A stretch of DNA of 12,430 bases from an uncultured archaeon (lineage in GTDB: Archaea; Asgardarchaeota; Jordiarchaeia; Jordiarchaeales; Jordiarchaeaceae). The notes under the pieces were generated by a model that was given only the letters and a program-made list of their open reading frames with translations, did not search any database and had not been told where the DNA came from. This document shows, in pieces, positions 1,522-11,798 of the stretch; the stretch's first letter is position 1; each line of letters begins with the position of its first letter. The stretch covers positions 1 through 12,430 of the forward strand of contig CAZECW010000160.1 of NCBI GenBank assembly GCA_964510585.1, given 5' to 3'. The translations under genes and the position numbers were made by a program.

Positions 1522-1740
1522 GTAAGCGTTCTTTTGGGCAAGGGAGCATGATAGGCCTTTTCCTTGACCTTCGAAAAGGATCAGAAGTGTAAAAAACTAA
1601 AACTTGCCTGTCGAGGAATGAGCGTCGCAGTCCCTAGGTTTGGGTGGGTGTAGTTTTCATTAAACTTTTTTGGTTATCATATACTTTTGTGTTACTGTGT
1701 GTGCCTTTCTTTAAAAATTACTAGCAATCATAATCAGCTT

Positions 1741-1755
1741 GGAAAAATATATAAA
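1741..1755. promoter_or_regulatory. TATA-like box (GGAAAAA-TATATAAA on plus, TTTATATA on minus)
   Basis: Canonical archaeal TATA sequence in the divergent intergenic region between the disrupted gene and the hdrBC-glt operon. Direction of use cannot be determined. Confidence 0.35.
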
Positions 1756-1913
1756 TTGGTAGTTGTATACTCCTAACTCAAATTCGAAGAATAACAGGTA
1801 GGCGATGAGTGATTAACTTCGGCATACGAAGTAATTTCCAAAATTTGCAAGAAAAATAAGCATGGAAACGGATGAAGCTCGGAGACGAATGGTGTTATTC
1901 TGGGTGCCTTCTA

Positions 1914-1962: not shown

Positions 1963-3258
1963 ATGAGATATGTGTTATTTTTGGGTTGTTTGATTCCATA
2001 TAGACTTCCCTCGTTAGAGATGACTGCAAGAAGGGTCTTAAAAAGGCTAAATGTGGAGCTAGAAGATTTATCTGATTTCTCTTGCTGTCCGAACACCATA
2101 GCAGTGGAATCCATAAATGAAGATTATTGGTACTTTTTGGCGGCTAGGAATCTTGCATTGGCTGAAAAATGTGGGCTTGATATTTTGTGTCTGTGTAGTG
2201 GTTGTTCTGAAAGTCTTAAAAGGGCTAACTTTGAATTGAAGAAGAATTATGCTTTAAGGGAGAGAGTAAACTCTAAACTTTTAGAAATAGGTTTAAAGTA
2301 TGATGGAAGCATTGAAGTGAAACATTTTGTGGAGGTTTTAATTGAAATAGGGTTAGATACTATAAGAGAAAAAATTGTTTGTCCTCTGCATGGTTTGAAG
2401 GTGGCTTGCCACTATGGTTGTCATCTTCTCAGACCCAGCGAAGTAATTTTCTTTGATAACCCTTTGAAACCAGTGTCTCTGGATAAGTTGGTTCAAGTGC
2501 TGGGAGCGGAAACCGTTGATTACGAAAATAAAATGCTATGCTGCGGGAGCGGTCTCAGTTTAGTGAAATCAGGTGAAGCGCAGCTATTATCAAAAAGGAA
2601 ACTGGACGAGGTTAAGAATAAGGCTGATTGCTTGGTTGTTGTTTGTCCTTCCTGTTTCCAACAGTATGACTCGGTTCAGAAGCTGATGAAGGAAAAACCG
2701 GATGTTCCAGTATTTTATTATCTTGAATTACTAGGATTAGCGCTAGGAATAGAACCTGAAAGTCTAGGATTATCAACCCACAAAATAAGTGTTTCTAACT
2801 TGGTAAATAGAATAAACGAGGGTGTAGAGTCCTTAAAGGTTCTTTCCGAATTTTTTGACCTAGCAGTTCTCAAAAATTGTGCCCGATGCGGCGCATGTTC
2901 TTCGGATTGCCCAGTAGCAGATGAGAATTTTAATCCTCACAATATAGTAAAAATGCTCTTGGAGGGAAAGTTGAAAGAAGTCTTGAATGCAGGAGAATTC
3001 TGGCGATGTACCCAGTGTTATACCTGTCACGAGCTTTGTCCTCAAAACATGGGACTAATAGAAATTTTTTCAAAGCTAAAAGGTATAGCCTCTGAAAAAG
3101 AGCTTATCCCGGAGGATATCAGAAACCAGGCTGCCAATGTTTTAAACAATGGCTTTGCTATTCCGCCCTCACAAACGCTGAGAAAACGCTTTGACCTTCC
3201 TGAACCACCTAAACCGAATCTGGACAAGATTAAGAAATTGGTGAGAAGCAATGTCTAA
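1963..3258 (+). CDS. hdrBC: Heterodisulfide reductase-like HdrB-HdrC fusion (two CCG domains followed by a 2x[4Fe-4S] domain)
   Basis: N-terminal ~285 aa: LFLGC9, SC41C42P, C78SGC81, HYGC153H, LC193C194G, VC228PSC231, i.e. all ten CCG cysteines typical of HdrB. C-terminal part: C306ARC309GAC312SSDC316P and WRC349TQC352YTC355HELC359P, plus an HdrC-like tail (GFAIP...RKRFDLPEPP). Confidence 0.9.
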   Translation: MRYVLFLGCLIPYRLPSLEMTARRVLKRLNVELEDLSDFSCCPNTIAVESINEDYWYFLAARNLALAEKCGLDILCLCSGCSESLKRANFELKKNYALRERVNSKLLEIGLKYDGSIEVKHFVEVLIEIGLDTIREKIVCPLHGLKVACHYGCHLLRPSEVIFFDNPLKPVSLDKLVQVLGAETVDYENKMLCCGSGLSLVKSGEAQLLSKRKLDEVKNKADCLVVVCPSCFQQYDSVQKLMKEKPDVPVFYYLELLGLALGIEPESLGLSTHKISVSNLVNRINEGVESLKVLSEFFDLAVLKNCARCGACSSDCPVADENFNPHNIVKMLLEGKLKEVLNAGEFWRCTQCYTCHELCPQNMGLIEIFSKLKGIASEKELIPEDIRNQAANVLNNGFAIPPSQTLRKRFDLPEPPKPNLDKIKKLVRSNV

Positions 3259-4312
3259 AGTAATAGATGGTTGTGGAATCAGCGGAATTATGAGTACGAA
3301 GAAAAAACTGATTCCCGGATGTGAGATAGTTACTTCTATAGATTCGATGAACTTTAGATATAATGGGTTAGGTGGAGGATTTGCGGGTTACGGAATTTAC
3401 CCCGATTATAAGGATTACTACGCGTTCCATTTAAATTTCGAAGATCGGGAGGCGAAGACTAAAGCGGAAAACTTCCTCTATGAGCAATTAAGAGTCATAG
3501 ACGATGAGCCAATACCCGTAAGAAAATCCGAGCTCATTGATGACACTAAGTCCATAAGTTGGCGTTATTTCGTTAGCCCCCCAAAGGATATAGAAAACGC
3601 TGATGACTACATTGTTAAGGTTGTTATGCACATAAATGAAAATATTCCTGGGGCCTATGTTTTTTCAAGCGGGAAGAACATGGGAGTTTTCAAGGCGGTT
3701 GGTTATCCCAAAGCCGTGGCGGACTATTTCAGAATAGAGGATTACTCCGCATATATTTGGATAGCTCATGGAAGATATCCAACCAATACACCTGGATGGT
3801 GGGGAGGAGCGCATCCGTTTAACATACTAGATTGGTCAGTGGTTCACAATGGTGAGCTTAGTTCTTACGGTACCAACAAGAATTTTTTGGAAATGTGGGG
3901 ATACAAGTGCACCTTGCTAACTGATACTGAAGTTTTAGCATACTTGTTTGATCTACTAGTAAGGAGACATAAGATCCCCGTAGAACTTGCATGTAATGTT
4001 ATTACTCCCATGTTTTGGAGCGAAATTAATTCTGATAACAGCCCGAGAGGAAAAGCTCTTAAAGCATTAAGAATGACTTATGGGGGAGCAATTGTTAATG
4101 GGCCATTCAGCATAATTGTAGCTACTAATCGTTTTATGTTCGGATTAACAGATAGAATCAAGCTTCGCCCATTAATAGCAGCTAGGAAGGACGACTTCTT
4201 CTACATTGCTAGTGAAGAGTGCGCAATAAGAAGTGTCTGTGAAAACCCGGACATTGTCTGGGCACCCAGAGGGGGAGAGCAAGTGATTGCATATGTAAAA
4301 GAGGTGACCTAA
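3251..4312 (+). CDS. gltB1: Archaeal glutamate synthase subunit 1, class II (Ntn) glutamine amidotransferase domain
   Basis: Short propeptide then the nucleophile motif G-C8-GISG; FRYNGLGGGFA, HGRYPTNT, HPF, HNGE, TDTEV, GPFS, DRIKLRP and ASEE motifs. Overlaps hdrBC by 8 nt. Confidence 0.9.
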   Translation: MSKVIDGCGISGIMSTKKKLIPGCEIVTSIDSMNFRYNGLGGGFAGYGIYPDYKDYYAFHLNFEDREAKTKAENFLYEQLRVIDDEPIPVRKSELIDDTKSISWRYFVSPPKDIENADDYIVKVVMHINENIPGAYVFSSGKNMGVFKAVGYPKAVADYFRIEDYSAYIWIAHGRYPTNTPGWWGGAHPFNILDWSVVHNGELSSYGTNKNFLEMWGYKCTLLTDTEVLAYLFDLLVRRHKIPVELACNVITPMFWSEINSDNSPRGKALKALRMTYGGAIVNGPFSIIVATNRFMFGLTDRIKLRPLIAARKDDFFYIASEECAIRSVCENPDIVWAPRGGEQVIAYVKEVT

Positions 4313-5805
4313 TGTTTCCTCCTCAATTCAGTGTGGTAATCGACAGTGATAAGTGTGAAAAATGCAAGAGATGCACAATAAACTGCTCCTTTGAAGCCTT
4401 ATCATATGATGATAGGGAAGATAGAATAGTTTCCGATGACCGAAAATGTGTGGCATGTTTGAGGTGTGCCAGTAAATGTCCTAAAGGCGCCATAACAATT
4501 AAGAAGAATGAAATCACCTTCTCTCCGCATCCAACTTGGACTCCGGAAATACGATTAGATATAATGAAGCAAGCAGAAACTGGTGGTATGATAATCGCTG
4601 GCTGCGGAAACGATTTAGACTATCCTTGCCTATTCGACAGAATAGTCATCGATGCTTGCCAGGTAACTAACCCATCCATAGACCCCCTAAGAGAACCAAT
4701 AGAAGTATCTACCTTTCTCGGTAAAAAACCCAAACAGTTGAAAATTGGAGACGATTTCAGTTTAGAAACCGAAATAGCCCCAAACATTATGATTGATACT
4801 CCCATAGTCATCGGCCACATTTCATACGGCGCCATCAGTCTTAACGCCCATAAAGCTTTAGCTATGGCGGCTAGAAAAGCAGGAACCCTAATGGGTTCCG
4901 GTGAAGGAGGCTTACACCCTGACCTTTACGAATTCGGAGACCACATAATAGTACAAGTGGCTTCAGGGCGTTTCGGCGTTCACTCCACATATTTAGAGGT
5001 TGGTGCCGCCATAGAAATTAAAATAGGGCAGGGTGCAAAACCGGGAATAGGTGGCCATTTACCAGGCGAGAAGGTCACCGAAGATATTGCTGAAACTAGA
5101 ATGATACCAGTTCATACAGATGCCCTATCGCCAGCTCCCCATCACGACATTTACTCCATTGAGGATTTGTCTCAGCTAATCTATGCTCTCAAAGAAGAAA
5201 CAGATTACATGAAACCAGTTTTCGTTAAAATAGCTGCGGTTCACAACAGCGCAGCCATAGCCAGCGGAATCGCTCGAGCGGGTGCAGACGCAATAACTAT
5301 TGATGGTTTTAGAGGAGGAACTGGTGCAGCTCCTAAAATAGTTAGAAACCATTTAGGTATACCTATAGAGATTGCTATTGCCAGTGTGGACAAAAGGCTG
5401 CGTGACGAAGGAATAAGAAATGAAGTTTCACTTATTGCTAGTGGAAGCATAAGATCTGCTGCCGATGTTGTCAAGGCCATAGCTCTTGGGGCTGATGCTG
5501 TAGCAATTGTCACACCAGCACTCATAGCTATGGGTTGTACTGTATGTCAACAGTGTTATAGGGGGGTATGCGCGTGGGGAATATGTACAACCCGACAAGA
5601 TCTGGCTAGAAGACTTAATCCAGAAGTTGCTTCGCGAAAAGTTTACAACTTGATTAGCGCTTGGACTATGGAACTTAAAGAAGTCTTAGGAGCTTTGGGA
5701 ATGAATGCAATTGAAAGTCTCCGATACAACAGAGAACGCTTGAGAGGAGTAGGAATTGATCAAAAGACTTTAGAAATATTGGGAATAAAAGCGGCGGGTG
5801 AGTGA
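4312..5805 (+). CDS. gltB2: Archaeal glutamate synthase subunit 2, FMN-binding domain with N-terminal 2x[4Fe-4S] ferredoxin
   Basis: CEKCKRCTINC and CVACLRCASKCP; ISYGAIS, SGEGG, QVASGRFGV, EIKIGQGAKPGIGGHLPGEKV, SPAPHHDIYSIEDL, DGFRGGTGAAP and the [3Fe-4S] motif GCTVCQQCYRGVCAWG. TAATG stop/start overlap with gltB1. Confidence 0.95.
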   Translation: MFPPQFSVVIDSDKCEKCKRCTINCSFEALSYDDREDRIVSDDRKCVACLRCASKCPKGAITIKKNEITFSPHPTWTPEIRLDIMKQAETGGMIIAGCGNDLDYPCLFDRIVIDACQVTNPSIDPLREPIEVSTFLGKKPKQLKIGDDFSLETEIAPNIMIDTPIVIGHISYGAISLNAHKALAMAARKAGTLMGSGEGGLHPDLYEFGDHIIVQVASGRFGVHSTYLEVGAAIEIKIGQGAKPGIGGHLPGEKVTEDIAETRMIPVHTDALSPAPHHDIYSIEDLSQLIYALKEETDYMKPVFVKIAAVHNSAAIASGIARAGADAITIDGFRGGTGAAPKIVRNHLGIPIEIAIASVDKRLRDEGIRNEVSLIASGSIRSAADVVKAIALGADAVAIVTPALIAMGCTVCQQCYRGVCAWGICTTRQDLARRLNPEVASRKVYNLISAWTMELKEVLGALGMNAIESLRYNRERLRGVGIDQKTLEILGIKAAGE

Positions 5806-6540
5806 ATGCAGATAGATGCTAAAGGCCTTAGCTATAAGGAGTTAAACAGAAAATTAAAAGAGCTTGTATCAAAAGAAGATGCCTTAGAGATAGACGTATT
5901 GAATGTTAATGGACACCGCTACATAGGAACCGGGCTGGAAAACAGTAAGGGCATTATCCGTCTGCATGGTGTTCCTGGAAATGATTTGGCAGCGTTTATG
6001 AACGGTGGTTCAATATTTGTTTATGGAAATGCTGGGGATGGTGTAGGCAACACTATGAATGCGGGACTAGTTGTTATCCATGGAGATGCAAGAGATGTGG
6101 TAGGTTACTCCATGAGGGGAGGAAAAATTTTCATCAAAGGTAATGTGGGCTACCGAGCTGGTATCCATATGAAAGCCTATAAGAACCGTTTCCCAAGCAT
6201 AGTAGTTGGGGGAAGAGCTGAAGATTTTCTAGGGGAATACATGGCTGGCGGTATAATAGTGGTTCTGAATTCTAATAATGAGAAAAATCCTGTGGGAAAA
6301 TTCACTGCAACTGGTATTCACGGAGGAACAATATTCGTTAGAGGCAAAATTTCAGAAGAACATCTAGGAATTGGTGCCCAAATAGGAACCCCTAACGAAG
6401 AAGAAATAAACCTGCTGAATAATTTAATCTCCGAATACTTCTCATATTTCCAAGTTAATGAAAACTTGGACTCATTAGAATTCACCAAAATTCACCCTAA
6501 GAGCCACCGCCCTTTCGCAAAACTTTACGTTCTAGAGTAG
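5806..6540 (+). CDS. gltB3: Archaeal glutamate synthase subunit 3, GXGXG beta-helix domain
   Basis: Repeated G-x-x-G/GxGxG units (GVPGNDLAAFMNGG, GNAGDGVGNTMNAG, GDARDVVGYSMRGG, DFLGEYMAGG, TGIHGG). The ATG directly abuts the gltB2 TGA. Confidence 0.92.
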   Translation: MQIDAKGLSYKELNRKLKELVSKEDALEIDVLNVNGHRYIGTGLENSKGIIRLHGVPGNDLAAFMNGGSIFVYGNAGDGVGNTMNAGLVVIHGDARDVVGYSMRGGKIFIKGNVGYRAGIHMKAYKNRFPSIVVGGRAEDFLGEYMAGGIIVVLNSNNEKNPVGKFTATGIHGGTIFVRGKISEEHLGIGAQIGTPNEEEINLLNNLISEYFSYFQVNENLDSLEFTKIHPKSHRPFAKLYVLE

Positions 6541-6636
6541 TTAATTAAAAAGGAAAATAATGATTCTAATTTAAACAGGGCAAATATAAAAATCTGAAAA
6601 CTTGTTTTTCTGCAAAATAAAAAAGAAGGCTGTTTT

Positions 6637-6888
6637 TTATTTGTGAACCCTTTTGCCAGTGATGCTATCCATGCATAAGTAACATTTAATGTGTTCCACG
6701 TTTGGCAGCTGACGCGCCCTTACCAGCCATTCATATATTGCATTGTATTCTGGAAGGCTTACAATTGTTACCAAATCATGCTCTCCAGCAATCACGTAAA
6801 TGTCTCTTACGGCCTCATCATTCTCTAATGCTTTTAGGACTTCTAATTCGGCTCCCGGCCTTATGTCAAAAATCATAAAAGCCATCAT
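6637..6888 (-). CDS. Stand-alone Lrp/AsnC ligand-binding (RAM) domain protein, no HTH
   Basis: 83 aa; beta-alpha-beta-beta-alpha-beta pattern with IRPG..V, YVIAGEHDLVTIV. SD GGTGAGG and a 4-nt ATGA overlap with the upstream paralog. Confidence 0.8.
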   Translation of the reverse strand: MMAFMIFDIRPGAELEVLKALENDEAVRDIYVIAGEHDLVTIVSLPEYNAIYEWLVRARQLPNVEHIKCYLCMDSITGKRVHK

Positions 6889-7157
6889 GTCTCCTCACCA
6901 CTCTCAACATTTATCAGGGCTGATTTCCAAACTTTCACTACTGGCAAAGTTTTCGTCCTCACTATTTCCCTCAGCTTTCTTATATTCATGACAACCTCAA
7001 AAATTCTCTTTAGACTGTCGGCTGCTATAATAGCGATGATATCATGAGTTCCCGTAACTAAATGAGATTCCTTTACCTCTGGAGCTGCGTGGATTTTTTC
7101 GAAAACAGCGTCCTCGGTTCCCGGAATAACATCTATTTCTAGCAAAAGTACAAACAT
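6885..7157 (-). CDS. Stand-alone Lrp/AsnC ligand-binding (RAM) domain protein, no HTH
   Basis: 90 aa; VIPGTEDAVFEKI, HLVTGTHDIIAII, IRKL..IVRTKT. SD GAGGAG upstream. Confidence 0.85.
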   Translation of the reverse strand: MFVLLLEIDVIPGTEDAVFEKIHAAPEVKESHLVTGTHDIIAIIAADSLKRIFEVVMNIRKLREIVRTKTLPVVKVWKSALINVESGEET

Positions 7158-7253: not shown

Positions 7254-8057
7254 TTAAGTTATTGTGGATTTTAAGTATCGGGGGTTACGCATTAGTCCAA
7301 GTTCCTCAATATCTGGTTTAATTTTTAGCTTTCCCTTTTCCATTTCGTTTAAGGTTTTTGAGATGCGGTTTTCAACTTCGCCTTGGAACTTGAGGGTGGA
7401 TGCAAATAGTATAAGAGTTCTAATAAATTCGTCATTGCTTGATAGGTTTGGGTCCTTTATTTCGATGTCGCATTTTCCACCTATGTTTAATATTTTGCTG
7501 TTAATTGTTACAACGTGTTTATTCTTTTCTACGCTGAAAACCTTGTAGTCTGCGCCCAGTGATACACGTTCTCCTATAATCTTGTAAGCCTCAAAAGTTC
7601 CGGTGTTCTCATTATAAATGCTTAAAATATAGGTATCGGTTCTGAGGGGGCCTCGATAAATCTTCTCCACTGTGTGAACCAGCTTGTCCACATCCAAGAT
7701 AACTGCAAAGACCGGAAGAGGCTCACCAGTACCAAAAGATTTTGCGATAGATTTACCAACTAGTTCCTCGATGGTACCCCACCAGGAAATATTTCCCGCT
7801 TCAGACTGTGAAAATGCTTTGACGACAAGTCTCTGATCAAAAATGCTTTGTCCCCCTTTCTTGAGCTCTTCTTCGTCCCAAATCGATTTCCTGTAGCCTA
7901 TCACGCCAAATTTGTTCCTGTCTTTTTTGAGATCTCCAAATAAGTCCATATCCCTTGTGAATTGTCGACTCTGGCTCATAAGAACTTCTTTCTGCCGTAC
8001 GCCAATCTCTTCGTCGTGAAGACTGGAAGACCAGTAGTCAACTGTGTAACTTACCAT
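7254..8057 (-). CDS. Hypothetical protein, possible tubby/LURP-one/scramblase-like beta-barrel with central helix
   Basis: 267-aa ORF with SD GGAGG. Many short beta-strands followed by a hydrophobic helix (GADYKVF..VVTINSKILNIGGKCDIEI..DEFIRTLILFASTLKF). The CDS is well supported; the fold call is pattern-based inference only. Confidence 0.55.
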   Translation of the reverse strand: MVSYTVDYWSSSLHDEEIGVRQKEVLMSQSRQFTRDMDLFGDLKKDRNKFGVIGYRKSIWDEEELKKGGQSIFDQRLVVKAFSQSEAGNISWWGTIEELVGKSIAKSFGTGEPLPVFAVILDVDKLVHTVEKIYRGPLRTDTYILSIYNENTGTFEAYKIIGERVSLGADYKVFSVEKNKHVVTINSKILNIGGKCDIEIKDPNLSSNDEFIRTLILFASTLKFQGEVENRISKTLNEMEKGKLKIKPDIEELGLMRNPRYLKSTIT

Positions 8058-8271: not shown

Positions 8272-9717
8272 TTATTTTCTTTTATTTAGGTGCTCTCTGT
8301 ACTCCCACATCTTACGGATGCATCTGGCTACTTTTCTTGGATCTACGTATGTTGGTATTCCTCGGCTTACAAGCATCTGGGTAAACTCTATATCTCTCGT
8401 AATTCCAAAAACTGGTCTTTTGTATTTCTCCACCAGTTTAGCTGAGTCGATGGCAATTTTTTGCATTATTTGTCTATAATTTTGTTCCGTTCTCCTAAGA
8501 TACTCCTCGCTCATACTGCCCCTTTCTCTCCAGTTTTTAATCATAACTGATAGGTCTCCTGCAAAAAATTGAATAATCAAAGAATCCACAACATCATTCT
8601 CAAATAGGATATCGCCACTCCAGGTCAGAGTATCCACGTCTCGTGTAGCCGCAAGATCTATGGGGTTTCCATGGCTCCAATAGGGAGGGGCTCTCTCACT
8701 TATCCTATCAACAATGTTTTGTGGCAATTTGGTTACTTCAAGTCCATACTCTTCACAAGCATCAGCAGCCAAAACACCCCAACCCCCACCAGGCGTAATA
8801 ATGCCTACTCTTCTACCCTGAGGTAGGATCCCCATTGAAAAAGCCATAGTATAATCAATAAGGTCTTCTGTGCCCTCACAAGTGATAATGTTATTCTGCT
8901 TGGCCACGGCATTAAATATCTGAGTGGCTCCTGCAATGGAGGCAGTGTGAGAGCGTGCAGCATTAGCACCTGCACTAGTTCTACCCGCCTTAACAACTAT
9001 GAATGGTTTCTTCTTGGTTAGCTCCTTTGTAACTTTCAAGAATCTTTCCCCGTTACGAACGCCCTCTACAAAAGCTGCTACAACCTTTGTGTCCGGGTCA
9101 TAGGTGAAATACTCAAGAAAGTCCTCCAGCTTCAAAACTGCTTCGTTTCCACTGCTGACAAATTTGGAAATACCTCCCCCCATTCTAGCTATTTCCCCCA
9201 TGAGTACTAAACCTACAGTGCCGCTTTGGCTCACCATACCAATATTCCCTTTAGGCGGGAAACTGGAAGCCATCAAGGTGTTCAGACTCAGAGAATTATT
9301 AATGTGACCCATACAGTTTGGGCCTACTGTTGCGATTTTGTTTTCTTCTGCTATTTTGACTATTTCTTCCTGCATTTTTCTGCCTTTTTCGCCCACTTCA
9401 CTGAAACCTGCGGTTATTATTATGGAGGCCTTTACTTTCTTTTCGGCACACTCTCTGAATGTTTGAGGAACGTTCTCTGCTGGGATGACGATGACTGCAA
9501 GGTCTACTTCTTCTGGTATGTCAGTTATTTTTGGATAGGTTTCCATTCCATGGACTTTCTCCATGTAAGGATTTACGGGGAAAACTTCGCCCTTGAATCC
9601 CCCGAAAATCAGATTTGAGATAACAGTGTTTCCAATTTTGCGTGGGGCATCCGTTGCTCCAATGACTGCAACTGTTCTGGGCTCAAAAAGCGGCTTTAAA
9701 TCATATTTGCTGTTCAT
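8272..9717 (-). CDS. acdA: Acetate/acyl-CoA ligase (ADP-forming) alpha subunit, paralog 2
   Basis: CoA-binding domain (LFEPRTVAVIGA, PVNP, VDLAVIVIPA, IITAGFSE, VGPNCMG), SQSG, SSGNEA, KAGRT, phospho-His motif ARSHTASIAG, NPIDL. The start was moved from the tracked TTG at 9741 to the ATG at 9717 because GGTGA lies 5 nt upstream of it. Confidence 0.9.
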   Translation of the reverse strand: MNSKYDLKPLFEPRTVAVIGATDAPRKIGNTVISNLIFGGFKGEVFPVNPYMEKVHGMETYPKITDIPEEVDLAVIVIPAENVPQTFRECAEKKVKASIIITAGFSEVGEKGRKMQEEIVKIAEENKIATVGPNCMGHINNSLSLNTLMASSFPPKGNIGMVSQSGTVGLVLMGEIARMGGGISKFVSSGNEAVLKLEDFLEYFTYDPDTKVVAAFVEGVRNGERFLKVTKELTKKKPFIVVKAGRTSAGANAARSHTASIAGATQIFNAVAKQNNIITCEGTEDLIDYTMAFSMGILPQGRRVGIITPGGGWGVLAADACEEYGLEVTKLPQNIVDRISERAPPYWSHGNPIDLAATRDVDTLTWSGDILFENDVVDSLIIQFFAGDLSVMIKNWRERGSMSEEYLRRTEQNYRQIMQKIAIDSAKLVEKYKRPVFGITRDIEFTQMLVSRGIPTYVDPRKVARCIRKMWEYREHLNKRK

Positions 9718-9835
9718 ACGTTTCACCACAAGCCCGGCCAATAATTATTTTACTGATATCCTTCCACCAAGATTAAAAGTAAACTATATTATTGGGGAGA
9801 GCAAATCGGCGAAAACACTATTAGAAATAATTTAT

Positions 9836-11296
9836 TTATTTTTCCACTTCACTGTTCCTCTCTAGGTATTCTCTGTATTCCACCATCTTTGCAATGCACT
9901 TTACTGCTCTTATGGGGCTTCCAAAAACTGGAACTCTACTATTCTTGAGAGTGTTTTGCACTTCACTATCCCTAGTCACAAATAAAACAGGTTTCCCATA
10001 CTTCTCATTTATGCTTGATGCGCTCTCCGCCAAGGCTTTCATAAACAACCTTGAGCCCTTCTTAAAGGTTTCAATCTCCTCCTCACTAAAAATATGTATT
10101 TTGGAGAGGGGATCAAATGAACTTGAAAAATCATATGCTATATACGCATATAGTAATACATCAGCTATGTCCTCTTCGAAGAGAATCTCGCCACAAAATT
10201 TGAAGAGGTTTATATCTAGGCTGGAAACGAGGTCGATAGGATTTCTATGACTCCAATAACTGGGAGCCCGCTCACTAATCTTTTCTACCACACTTGCTGA
10301 CAATGGAGGCACCTCCAAACCATATTCTTCACAAGCATCGGCCGTCAGAACAGCCCACCCTCCAGCTCCACTTAGGATTCCCACCCTTCTTCCCTTGGGC
10401 AAAGGGCACTTGGCAAAGGCGGTGGCATAATCCACAAGCTCATCACTATTCTCTGCCAAAACAATTCCGGTCTGTTTTGCCACAGCGCGAAAAACCTGAA
10501 TTGAGCCGGCAATAGAACTAGTGTGGGAACGGGCGGCCTCAGAACCAGCCTTCGTTTTACCCGCCTTAATAGCTATAAAGGGTTTTTTGCTGGTTAACTT
10601 TCTCGCCACATCAATGAATCTCCTTCCATCTCGAACCCCTTCAATAAAAGCCACAACAACCCCTGCGTCAGGGTCGCTGCTATAATACTCCAGATAATCC
10701 TCCAATTTCAATACTGCCTCATTTCCGCTACTCACAAATTTTGTGAAACCCGCTCCAGTCTTGGAGATGGCATCCATAAGCACCATTCCCAGAGTTCCAG
10801 ACTGAGAAACCATGGCTATGTTTCCCTTATTAGGATTTATGGGGCTCATTATCGCGGTCAGATTTCCAGAAGCGCTATAAACACCCATACAGTTGGGACC
10901 TACTATTTTCATTCCACTTCTCTGACCTATTTCAGAAATCTCATTCTGCAACTTTTCCCCTTCTCCACCCACCTCCTTAAAGCCGGCAGTAATTATGATA
11001 CAGGCTTTAACCCCCTTCTCCTCACACTCCCTTAAAACCTTAACAGCAGTATTGGCAGGAACCGTCAACACAGCTAGATCAACGTCTACCGGAATGGAAG
11101 TAACATTGGGATATGCCTTTAATCCCAAAACCACGCTCTCATAAGGATTCACTGGATAAATTTCACCTCTAAACTCTCCAGAAAGAATAGCGGCCAAGGT
11201 AGCGCCACCAATCTTCCCAAAAGTATTAGATGCACCAACCACCGCAACATTACTTGGTTTAAACAGAGCTTCAAAACCCATTTTTTTACCATTCAT
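9836..11296 (-). CDS. acdA: Acetate/acyl-CoA ligase (ADP-forming) alpha subunit, paralog 1
   Basis: LFKPSNVAVVGAS, PVNP, VDLAVLTVPA, IITAGFKE, VGPNCMG, SQSG, SSGNEA, KAGKT, ARSHTSSIAG, NPIDL. The start was moved from the tracked TTG at 11323 to the ATG at 11296, which has GGAGA upstream. Confidence 0.9.
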   Translation of the reverse strand: MNGKKMGFEALFKPSNVAVVGASNTFGKIGGATLAAILSGEFRGEIYPVNPYESVVLGLKAYPNVTSIPVDVDLAVLTVPANTAVKVLRECEEKGVKACIIITAGFKEVGGEGEKLQNEISEIGQRSGMKIVGPNCMGVYSASGNLTAIMSPINPNKGNIAMVSQSGTLGMVLMDAISKTGAGFTKFVSSGNEAVLKLEDYLEYYSSDPDAGVVVAFIEGVRDGRRFIDVARKLTSKKPFIAIKAGKTKAGSEAARSHTSSIAGSIQVFRAVAKQTGIVLAENSDELVDYATAFAKCPLPKGRRVGILSGAGGWAVLTADACEEYGLEVPPLSASVVEKISERAPSYWSHRNPIDLVSSLDINLFKFCGEILFEEDIADVLLYAYIAYDFSSSFDPLSKIHIFSEEEIETFKKGSRLFMKALAESASSINEKYGKPVLFVTRDSEVQNTLKNSRVPVFGSPIRAVKCIAKMVEYREYLERNSEVEK

Positions 11297-11798
11297 ACTT
11301 ATCTCCAAACCCGAAGGTATCAACTACAAATATAAATAATTTTAGGGAACTTTTCCATCACAAAATAACAGAAATTGTATTTTAGTTTTTACACCGCACA
11401 GCCTCTTCTTACAAGAGTAACCTACAAAATATTAGCATTGCCAACCTTTTCGTCACCTAGCGTGTACTCCATAAAATTTGGATATGCTGCCTTTCCCTGC
11501 TGGTACAGGTGCATTCTATTTCAGGAAGGTGGTGGAGTCTAATCTAGTATATCGTAGTATGCAAAAGAACCTGAGGAAGGCGCAGGCTCTCTTCACTCCT
11601 AGTTATTCTATGAGAATGACGCCACTGAAAAATTTTAAACAGTCCTTTAGGTGTGAAAAAAGGGGTTCCACGCAAAAAATATTTGCGCTATAGATCAAAA
11701 AAGCTGGTTGGCTCCTCCAAATAAACTTAGTTGTTACTATCAAAATATTTATTTGTAAAACTATCTCTAAATTATCTTAGGTTATTGGAGGTTACCTC

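Follow-up and report, generated by a model that had tools for sequence, protein, structure and literature searches.

Glutamate synthases (GOGATs) are classed by their electron donor, i.e. NADPH, NADH, ferredoxin or, in a proposed form, F420, and to our knowledge the donor of the archaeal-type split glutamate synthase has never been settled. Here we analyse an operon for such a split enzyme that is led by hdrBC, a gene for a fusion of HdrB-like and HdrC-like parts as known from heterodisulfide reductases. It lies on one entire contig of 12,430 nucleotides (GenBank CAZECW010000160.1; C160 in our numbering), called the window below, from an Asgard archaeon of the Jordarchaeia/Freyarchaeia. As judged from the comparisons presented here, the four genes encode a real and conserved glutamate synthase of four subunits, one of them of HdrBC type. 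Its electron supply is undescribed and probably draws on a dithiol, and HdrBC evidently holds the place of the GltD, ferredoxin or FrhB-like module of other glutamate synthases. The genes and domains concerned are:

1963 to 3258, plus strand: hdrBC, fused HdrB-like and HdrC-like Fe-S protein of 431 residues, the proposed electron-input subunit
1963 to 2832, plus strand: HdrB-like catalytic domain (residues 1-290 of HdrBC) with two CCG motifs
2860 to 3255, plus strand: HdrC-like ferredoxin domain (residues 300-431 of HdrBC) with two CxxCxxCxxxCP motifs
3251 to 4312, plus strand: gltB1, class-II (N-terminal nucleophile, Ntn) glutamine amidotransferase subunit of 353 residues; GATase_2/6/7
4312 to 5805, plus strand: gltB2, with a Fer4 dicluster domain (residues 8-66) and a flavin mononucleotide (FMN)/synthase domain (residues 107-465)
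5806 to 6540, plus strand: gltB3, GXGXG beta-helix subunit of 244 residues

Bacterial GltBD and ferredoxin-GOGAT (1EA0, 2VDC, 6S6S, 7MFM, 1LLW) carry out the same chemistry with the same amidotransferase, FMN/Fe-S and GXGXG modules. In contrast to bacterial GltB, however, the large chain is divided into three genes here, GltB2 carries an additional ferredoxin domain at its N-terminus, the Fe-S motif comprises four cysteines instead of three, and the partner is HdrBC, with no GltD. The same three GltB pieces also make up the proposed F420-dependent FGltS, in which a variable input gene at the edge of the operon contributes FrhB-like parts (PMC3448663; PMC9012536), and an Asgard variant with a ferredoxin and an NAD(P)H-flavoprotein, which has other extra genes at this edge, whereas the extra gene in the window encodes an HdrB-HdrC fusion and neither an FrhB-like nor a Pyr_redox_2 protein. 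The operon thus belongs neither to GltBD, as it has no GltD, nor to FGltS, as it has no FrhB domain, nor does it have adjacent lipoate genes. In the literature searched we found no biochemical characterisation of archaeal-type split variants with extra input modules.

As to the fourth subunit, methanogen HdrABC (5ODC/5ODR, 7BKB, 8RVU, 9SFI) shares with HdrBC the two CCG motifs, which bind non-cubane [4Fe-4S] clusters, and an HdrC domain with two [4Fe-4S] clusters. Methanogen HdrB is 39-46% identical to the window protein and superimposes with a template modelling (TM) score of 0.91, Arg14 and most cluster-proximal residues being kept. Nevertheless, HdrBC is a fusion with part B preceding part C, its HdrC part is trimmed at both ends, it has no HdrA, MvhD or MCR context, and it would presumably oxidise thiols to supply an enzyme of biosynthesis. 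TfrAB from Methanothermobacter, the analogy drawn in a preliminary description of the window, likewise combines CCG and Fe-S modules and is proposed to use thiol electrons for a reductive, non-respiratory reaction, but the NCBIfam model of TfrB gives 87.7 bits on HdrBC (cut-off 385), the ferredoxin part of TfrB stands at the N-terminus, and TfrB works with a fumarate reductase flavoprotein and takes its electrons from coenzyme M together with coenzyme B (CoM-SH/CoB-SH). Finally, sulfur oxidisers are known to have Hdr-like complexes that require lipoate-binding proteins (PMC6067878). This sHdr-LbpA system (Cao et al. 2018, PMC6067878) likewise has a CCG catalytic subunit and a lipoate-binding protein, dedicated ligases and a possible link to dihydrolipoamide dehydrogenase, whereas HdrBC-GOGAT has no HdrA, sulfurtransferase (DsrE, TusA, Rhd) or sulfur-oxidation context and has a glutamate synthase as partner.

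According to the preliminary description, a glutamate synthase of this kind is not known as a described enzyme class, and we too met with no account of a glutamate synthase linked to HdrBC in the open-access literature, including PMC12054007, PMC9012536, PMC7282089, PMC8097209 and PMC11291895. In its accessible parts, the last of these, the Freyarchaeia genome paper, lists no gltD for its genome and has no glutamate synthase or gltB large-subunit entry in the supplementary files.

Subunits and cluster ligands

Four co-directional open reading frames (ORFs), overlapping or abutting, fill positions 1963-6540. hdrBC and gltB1 overlap by 8 nucleotides (3251-3258, ATGTCTAA), gltB1 and gltB2 by one nucleotide within TAATG (4310-4314), and the TGA of gltB2 directly abuts the ATG of gltB3 (5803-5808). 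GGTGA precedes each of the four start codons by 4-6 nucleotides (1954-1958, 3240-3244, 4303-4307 and 5797-5801). ORF coordinates and junction sequences hence agree with the four coupled genes, each with its GGTGA, of the preliminary description. Its observation that genes for GltD, an FrhB-like protein and a free ferredoxin are absent holds for all ORFs of the window, none of which matches GltD, FrhB, a free ferredoxin or hdrA; tRNAs were not found in the window either.

HdrBC contains two CCG domains (85 bits) and a Fer4 dicluster according to Pfam. It scores 279.7 bits with the HdrB model TIGR03288, i.e. below the curated equivalog cut-off of 345.15, and 74 bits with the HdrC model TIGR03290 (cut-off 160), although both CxxCxxCxxxCP motifs are present and invariant; the second-best NCBIfam match is the SdhE model with 156 bits. 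All ten cysteines of the CCG motifs (C9, C41, C42, C78, C81 and C153, C193, C194, C228, C231) and all eight of the HdrC domain (C306/309/312/316 and C349/352/355/359) show no variation among 30 family members, which are 38-88% identical. Compared with the Protein Data Bank, the family profile finds HdrB with E values of 1e-92 to 1e-98 (8rvu_b, 7.5e-98) and HdrC with 3.6e-23 (5odc_C). The profile alignment spans residues 28-149 of the 184 residues of HdrC, the fused part being shorter than free HdrC by about 25 N-terminal and about 35 C-terminal residues. In the AlphaFold2 model of HdrBC (predicted local distance difference test score 89.8) the HdrB domain matches 5odc_B in Foldseek with a TM score of 0.91, a root-mean-square deviation of 1.8 A and 39% identity, and the HdrC domain matches 5odc_C/I with TM scores of 0.54-0.57; LutA is also among the Foldseek matches. 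Taken together, sequence and model indicate that the cluster ligands of HdrBC are intact and that the HdrB/HdrC fold is kept.

The other three subunits have the features that characterise an archaeal-type split glutamate synthase, i.e. an amidotransferase with an Ntn cysteine, a PF01645 protein with Fe-S cysteines and a GXGXG protein. In GltB1 the nucleophile, Cys8, lies behind a propeptide of seven residues (MSKVIDG, followed by CGI). The motif G-C-(G/A/S)-(I/L) is present in 12 of 13 other loci and reads N-C-S in the remaining one (L069), the cysteine itself being found in all 13. GltB2 matches Glu_synthase (PF01645, 455.5 bits) as well as Fer4 families and keeps both N-terminal CxxCxxCxxxC(P) motifs. 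There is no solved structure of a split glutamate synthase, and the solved structures nearest to GltB2 are bacterial GltB large chains (7mfm, 1.4e-61). The Fe-S motif of its FMN domain, C409-x2-C412-x2-C415-x4-C420 (CxxCxxCxxxxC, residues 409-420), is present in 14 of 14 sequences. Because four cysteines are conserved, this cluster may be of the [4Fe-4S] type, unlike the [3Fe-4S] cluster of bacteria, and the preliminary description, which had assigned [3Fe-4S], should be amended in this point. GltB3 contains the GXGXG domain (PF01493, 96.6 bits) and is kin to FwdC as well as to the C-terminal GltB domain.

Conserved linkage and probable electron input

The order hdrBC-gltB1-gltB2-gltB3 recurs in six other Asgard genomes with HdrBC identities of 39-91%. 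Three of five congeners encode full-length fusions, as do a genome from a second family, at 54% identity, and a third family, at 39-40%, and the two congeners without hdrBC are also without gltB2. Of 301 evenly sampled Asgard genomes, 23 have the hdrBC fusion. In 21 of the 23, gltB2 lies on the contig of the fusion, about 2.5 kb downstream of it; the remaining two have the genes on separate short contigs. Moreover, the protein database contains many non-Asgard fusions of 427-456 residues (38-48% identity), under the names Methanoperedens, Methanosarcinales, Bacillota, Coriobacteriia and Actinobacteria. Glutamate-synthase genes adjoin the fusion in all 12 neighbourhoods of distant homologues, from Methanoperedens, Bacillota, Coriobacteriia and others, with gltB3 upstream and not last in five, and bacterial operons often have glutamine synthetase (GS) and GlnR-like and ANTAR regulators nearby. 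A search of gene neighbourhoods had been suggested in the preliminary description as a check on the linkage, which proves to be kept in the six Asgard relatives and in 12 of 12 distant homologues; such an arrangement is far beyond chance.

In a tree of HdrB domains 16 stand-alone Asgard HdrBs, including seven of the eight paralogues of the host, form one clade (support 99/97) apart from the GOGAT-linked domains, and a single origin of the latter, i.e. one clade, is compatible with the data (p-AU 0.75). As the GOGAT-linked HdrBs are separate from the stand-alone Asgard HdrBs, the fusion appears to be an old dedicated lineage that travels with gltB and was not recruited locally. The tree also argues against the recent recruitment of a host HdrB paralogue, which we rejected.

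The metagenome-assembled genome (MAG) of the host (G000) has 3.78 Mb and is 96% complete; among public records, a 'Candidatus Jordarchaeia' MAG comes closest with 91% identity, followed by CP147778, a complete 'Freyarchaeota' chromosome, with 85%. The window DNA is found in hot-spring metagenomes, and matches of the operon and of hdrBC to sequencing runs were to hot-spring DNA only, with none among RNA runs. gltB2 is the sole Glu_synthase FMN-domain gene of the MAG, i.e. the HdrBC-linked operon encodes the host's only glutamate synthase, next to which the host has one GS and two glutamate dehydrogenase (GDH)-family genes among its nitrogen enzymes. Its five FrhB-like genes are all on contigs other than the window, and there is one GltD-like gene (539 residues, Fer4_20 and Pyr_redox_2). 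As this gene is flanked by genes for an IorA-like thiamine pyrophosphate enzyme (611 residues) and a POR-gamma protein (208 residues), all within G000:C62:8008-12102 (L044), it is part of a 2-oxoacid oxidoreductase operon. This suggests an enzyme of that kind coupled to NAD(P)H, and no small subunit of a GOGAT, and we rejected the gene as the missing GOGAT partner. With a sole GOGAT, and with the GltD-like gene in another operon, the electron source of the GOGAT is therefore a real question for the host genome.

Two kinds of rearranged operon bear on this question. Firstly, a gltB2 of the window's clade (57-59% identity) is found without hdrBC in eight Asgard genomes. Four of these, and also G047 in a second operon, have genes for a Fer4_11 two-cluster protein of 150 residues and a Pyr_redox_2/Rubredoxin_C flavoprotein of 430 residues in hdrBC's stead; G047 holds the two operon types on a single contig, about 25 kb from each other. 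A Pfam scan showed this pair in L069 (1302-3030) and L075 (5899-7637); in L070, L071 and L074 the flavoprotein was inferred from weak Lpd-like tblastn matches only. From its domains it is an obvious candidate for an NAD(P)H-to-Fe-S input pair. Secondly, in all five members of a Bacillota-like subclade, which are mutually 68-83% identical, genes for dihydrolipoyl dehydrogenase (Lpd; TIGR01350, 536 bits, cut-off 408.8) and for a lipoyl domain of 76-77 residues are inserted into the operon, the latter directly before hdrBC. The order is GS, gltB3, Lpd, in two of the five LipB and LipA, the lipoyl domain, hdrBC, gltB1 and gltB2. Such a layout would spell out a chain from NAD(P)H via Lpd to a dihydrolipoyl arm and on to HdrB, the HdrC clusters and GltB2. 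It parallels the sHdr-LbpA system in that Lpd, LipB/LipA and a lipoyl domain are found beside hdrBC, but the carrier of the bacterial operons is E2-type and not GcvH-like as LbpA is, and the Asgard window and its relatives are without adjacent lipoate genes.

Because hdrBC is swapped for another module in sister operons, and because Lpd and a lipoyl domain are inserted before it in the bacterial subclade, we regard HdrBC as an electron-input module. That it is a dedicated GOGAT subunit seems very likely to us, and its role as dedicated, thiol/disulfide-based electron input of the glutamate synthase is well supported by these comparisons. This role had been proposed in the preliminary description with CoM-SH/CoB-SH as the donor. 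Synteny, module swap, Lpd-lipoyl subclade, the 18 invariant cysteines and the placement of the GltD-like gene elsewhere all strengthen the role itself, whereas the proposed donor is not supported, as set out below.

Candidate donors, proposed mechanism and rival readings

In the HdrB of 5ODR the sulfonate of CoM contacts the backbone of Gly46 and Gly198, the carboxylate of CoB contacts Arg201, the phosphonate of CoB contacts Arg14 and Arg240, and Phe233 lines the alkyl tunnel (PMC13261682). We aligned these positions to 30 GOGAT-linked family sequences. Arg14 is retained in all 30, but position 46 holds T, S, I or V instead of Gly throughout, the position of Gly198 is Leu in all 30, in a loop that is one residue shorter, the position of Phe233 is Ser or Ala in 27, and Arg240 is not retained; at Arg201 the alignment is ambiguous, with Lys202 in the window protein and an Arg at position 200 in 15 of the 30. 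The motifs CCPAPG, CCGAGGG and CPFC are found in all five solved methanogen HdrBs. Additionally, McrA was not found in the 96%-complete host genome, although control genomes did match, and most HdrBC-GOGAT carriers are non-methanogens. CoM-SH/CoB-SH is thus unlikely as donor, because the pocket residues are replaced, McrA was not found and most carriers are non-methanogens, and we rejected this candidate.

A lipoyl arm could take its place. The couple of 2-oxoglutarate plus NH4+ and glutamate lies at about -0.13 V, and the potential of lipoamide is comfortably lower. For lipoamide an E0' of -0.29 V is given (PMC6067878). Five GcvH-family genes of the host all encode the lipoyl lysine, in three cases in a K-aromatic-(V/I)-G context, and two encode an N-terminal cysteine. 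The host also has two LplA ligases, one of which adjoins a free GcvH, and one Lpd (NF004947, 644 against a cut-off of 592); bacterial LipB, LipA and the 77-residue lipoyl domain gave no tblastn match in the host genome. With this gene set the host can, in principle, support a lipoyl route. Two of the carriers are orphans with no glycine-cleavage genes nearby. One is a DGC-GcvH fusion that lies among two more DGC proteins, a small ferredoxin, TauE and LplA (G000:C94:20268-27494, L066), the other a free GcvH with LplA directly after it (G000:C193:51482-53064, L064). The Lpd gene is followed by one for a YruB-family protein and then by an FtrB-like one (ferredoxin:thioredoxin reductase catalytic subunit), which looks like a compact thiol/disulfide cluster (G000:C144:10338-12576; L067, 4339-6577).

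Several points weigh against a lipoyl or other dithiol donor distinct from CoM-SH/CoB-SH. CCG-domain proteins also occur in non-thiol systems, i.e. LutA, GlcF, GlpC and SdhE. A PF00364 search of the host genome found no E2-type lipoyl domain, and no Lpd, lipoyl carrier or other thiol gene adjoins the operon in the window, in the Asgard relatives or in seven of the 12 distant neighbourhoods. The lipoyl link is confined to the one subclade of related genomes described above. The host's GcvH and Lpd have other possible jobs, as the P protein of glycine cleavage is present, and its Lpd stands beside the glutaredoxin-like YruB-family and FtrB-like genes. Finally, the host has a homologue of ComA (phosphosulfolactate synthase; C156:281-1009), and one of its eight HdrBs, a stand-alone protein (G000:C20:73261-74142), has the methanogen-type pocket motifs CCPAPGVF and CCGAGGGVR; both hint at a CoM/CoB-like thiol pool in the host.

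Weighing both sides, we favour some dithiol as donor with fair confidence. It is most likely not CoM-SH/CoB-SH; a lipoyl arm would be the best candidate, and another cellular dithiol is possible. For this archaeon in particular, a lipoyl carrier as donor is a possibility to be taken seriously, but one that we hold to be clearly doubtful.

We propose as the probable arrangement a split glutamate synthase with HdrBC as fourth, electron-input subunit that is fed by a dithiol, whereby the physical complex, the direction of electron flow and the identity of the donor are read from genes and sequences. A dihydrolipoyl arm, carried by one of the five GcvH/LbpA-like proteins and re-reduced by Lpd at the expense of NAD(P)H, or another dithiol would deliver its electrons at the clusters of HdrB, which would oxidise the thiols. 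The electrons would then traverse the two [4Fe-4S] clusters of the HdrC domain singly and pass via the two [4Fe-4S] clusters at the N-terminus of GltB2 and the Fe-S cluster of its FMN domain to FMN. Meanwhile, GltB1 would free ammonia from glutamine, ammonia and 2-oxoglutarate would give 2-iminoglutarate, and FMN would finally reduce the latter.

Alternatively, HdrBC-GOGAT might dock on a bifurcating HdrA complex that is encoded elsewhere, with electrons passing from the flavin adenine dinucleotide (FAD) of HdrA to the HdrC domain and with glutamate synthesis as the high-potential branch, whether or not a disulfide takes part at HdrB. HdrC is known to join HdrA to HdrB in solved HdrABC complexes, the host has about eight separate HdrC-HdrB pairs, and a genome of the same genus is reported with highly expressed HdrABC and an unidentified heterodisulfide (PMC11291895). 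However, neither the window nor, judged by Pfam content, the 7-9 kb around the fusion in the 12 distant neighbourhoods contains an hdrA-like or mvhD-like gene, the fusion is short of the above-mentioned N- and C-terminal stretches of free HdrC, and the Lpd-lipoyl insertion supplies a full donor chain without HdrA. We thus consider docking unlikely.

It is likewise rather improbable that the CCG domain serves a non-thiol partner such as a quinol, in the manner of SdhE, or is a mere Fe-S wire or ferredoxin dock, which would make the enzyme quinol- or ferredoxin-dependent. The CCG proteins of LutABC, GlcF, GlpC and SdhE are precedents, SdhE and LutA appear among the model and fold matches of HdrBC, and the altered CoM/CoB pocket would agree with such a role, but by identity, fold and profile E values the protein is far nearer to true HdrB, GltB2 already has a ferredoxin domain of its own, and Lpd and lipoyl domain upstream of hdrBC in one subclade point to a dithiol.

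Hardly probable is a role of HdrBC as redox sensor or regulator that ties the activity of the glutamate synthase to the thiol/disulfide state of the cell, or as electron outlet for glutamate oxidation with a disulfide as acceptor, the latter an alternative named in the preliminary description: thiol/disulfide potentials are near enough for sequence alone to leave the direction unfixed, and the host, with its two GDH-family genes, is thought to degrade amino acids (PMC11291895), yet the glutaminase subunit is never lost and its Ntn cysteine is conserved, the bacterial operons lie beside GS and GlnR-like and ANTAR nitrogen regulators, glutamine hydrolysis is generally held to render the reaction effectively one-way, and a pure sensor would have no need for an invariant wire of eight cysteines and two clusters.

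Flanking features and wider meaning

The surroundings of the operon contain the following further features:

1712 to 1760, plus strand: A/T-rich conserved block (TTTAAAAATTACTA...AAAAATATATAAATT), candidate archaeal promoter with B recognition element (BRE) and TATA box
6541 to 6640, no strand: convergent intergenic spacer with oligo-T tracts
6637 to 6888 and 6885 to 7157, minus strand: two overlapping, stand-alone Lrp/AsnC RAM-domain genes for 83 and 90 residues

Upstream of hdrBC, 1.6 kb (332-1962) are without a convincing ORF, and the final ~390 nucleotides (1574-1960) form a conserved leader, which in blastn is 73% identical to that of the relative G003. Its core (1712-1839), which is also matched in G002, contains TATA-like blocks rich in A/T together with a small hairpin that is conserved (CTTCGGCATACGAAG), and the block at 1712-1760 is a candidate for the BRE/TATA promoter of the operon. 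Rfam gave nothing at the gathering threshold across the window, nor at E<=1 over 1480-1990, and the conserved leader folds no better than shuffled sequences (z 0.26). At the other end, the spacer at 6541-6640 is the probable end of the operon, where the oligo-T tracts might act as terminator.

The two RAM-domain proteins (AsnC_trans_reg, 30 and 47 bits) are without the DNA-binding part, and their genes, convergent to gltB3, keep their position beside the operon in G005, G002 and G009 (52-95% identity). Possibly they sense amino acids in connection with the operon; we do not count them among the subunits of the enzyme. Next to them lies a gene for a protein of 267 residues with no Pfam match (7254-8057, minus strand), which is kept beside the operon within the genus; in G009 the homologue (L031, 2155-2922) immediately precedes hdrBC and is read from the same strand. 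An Atlas feature search led to hypothetical clusters only, plus a weak tubby/scramblase-like lead, and since the protein has a single cysteine it is unlikely to be a redox carrier. Further along, 8272-9741 and 9836-11323 (both minus strand) are tandem paralogues, about 50% identical, for the alpha subunit of an ADP-forming acyl-CoA synthetase; a gene for the beta subunit was not seen in the window.

The HdrBC-linked enzymes might constitute a new donor-defined class of glutamate synthase, with a dihydrolipoyl arm or another dithiol as donor, that was spread by gene transfer among anaerobic archaea (Asgard, Methanoperedens) and bacteria (Bacillota, Coriobacteriia), a proposal that we make tentatively and at slightly less than even confidence. 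If true, this would add a thiol-driven class of glutamate synthase that extends from Asgard archaea to Firmicutes and Actinobacteria, and the chemistry of the non-cubane Hdr clusters would reach from energy metabolism into biosynthesis. If the lipoyl link is true as well, protein-bound lipoate would gain a further function, in nitrogen assimilation. Moreover, Hdr complexes of Asgard archaea are described as acting on an 'unidentified heterodisulfide' (PMC11291895), and HdrBC-GOGAT may provide a concrete enzyme with which the physiological thiol can be identified.

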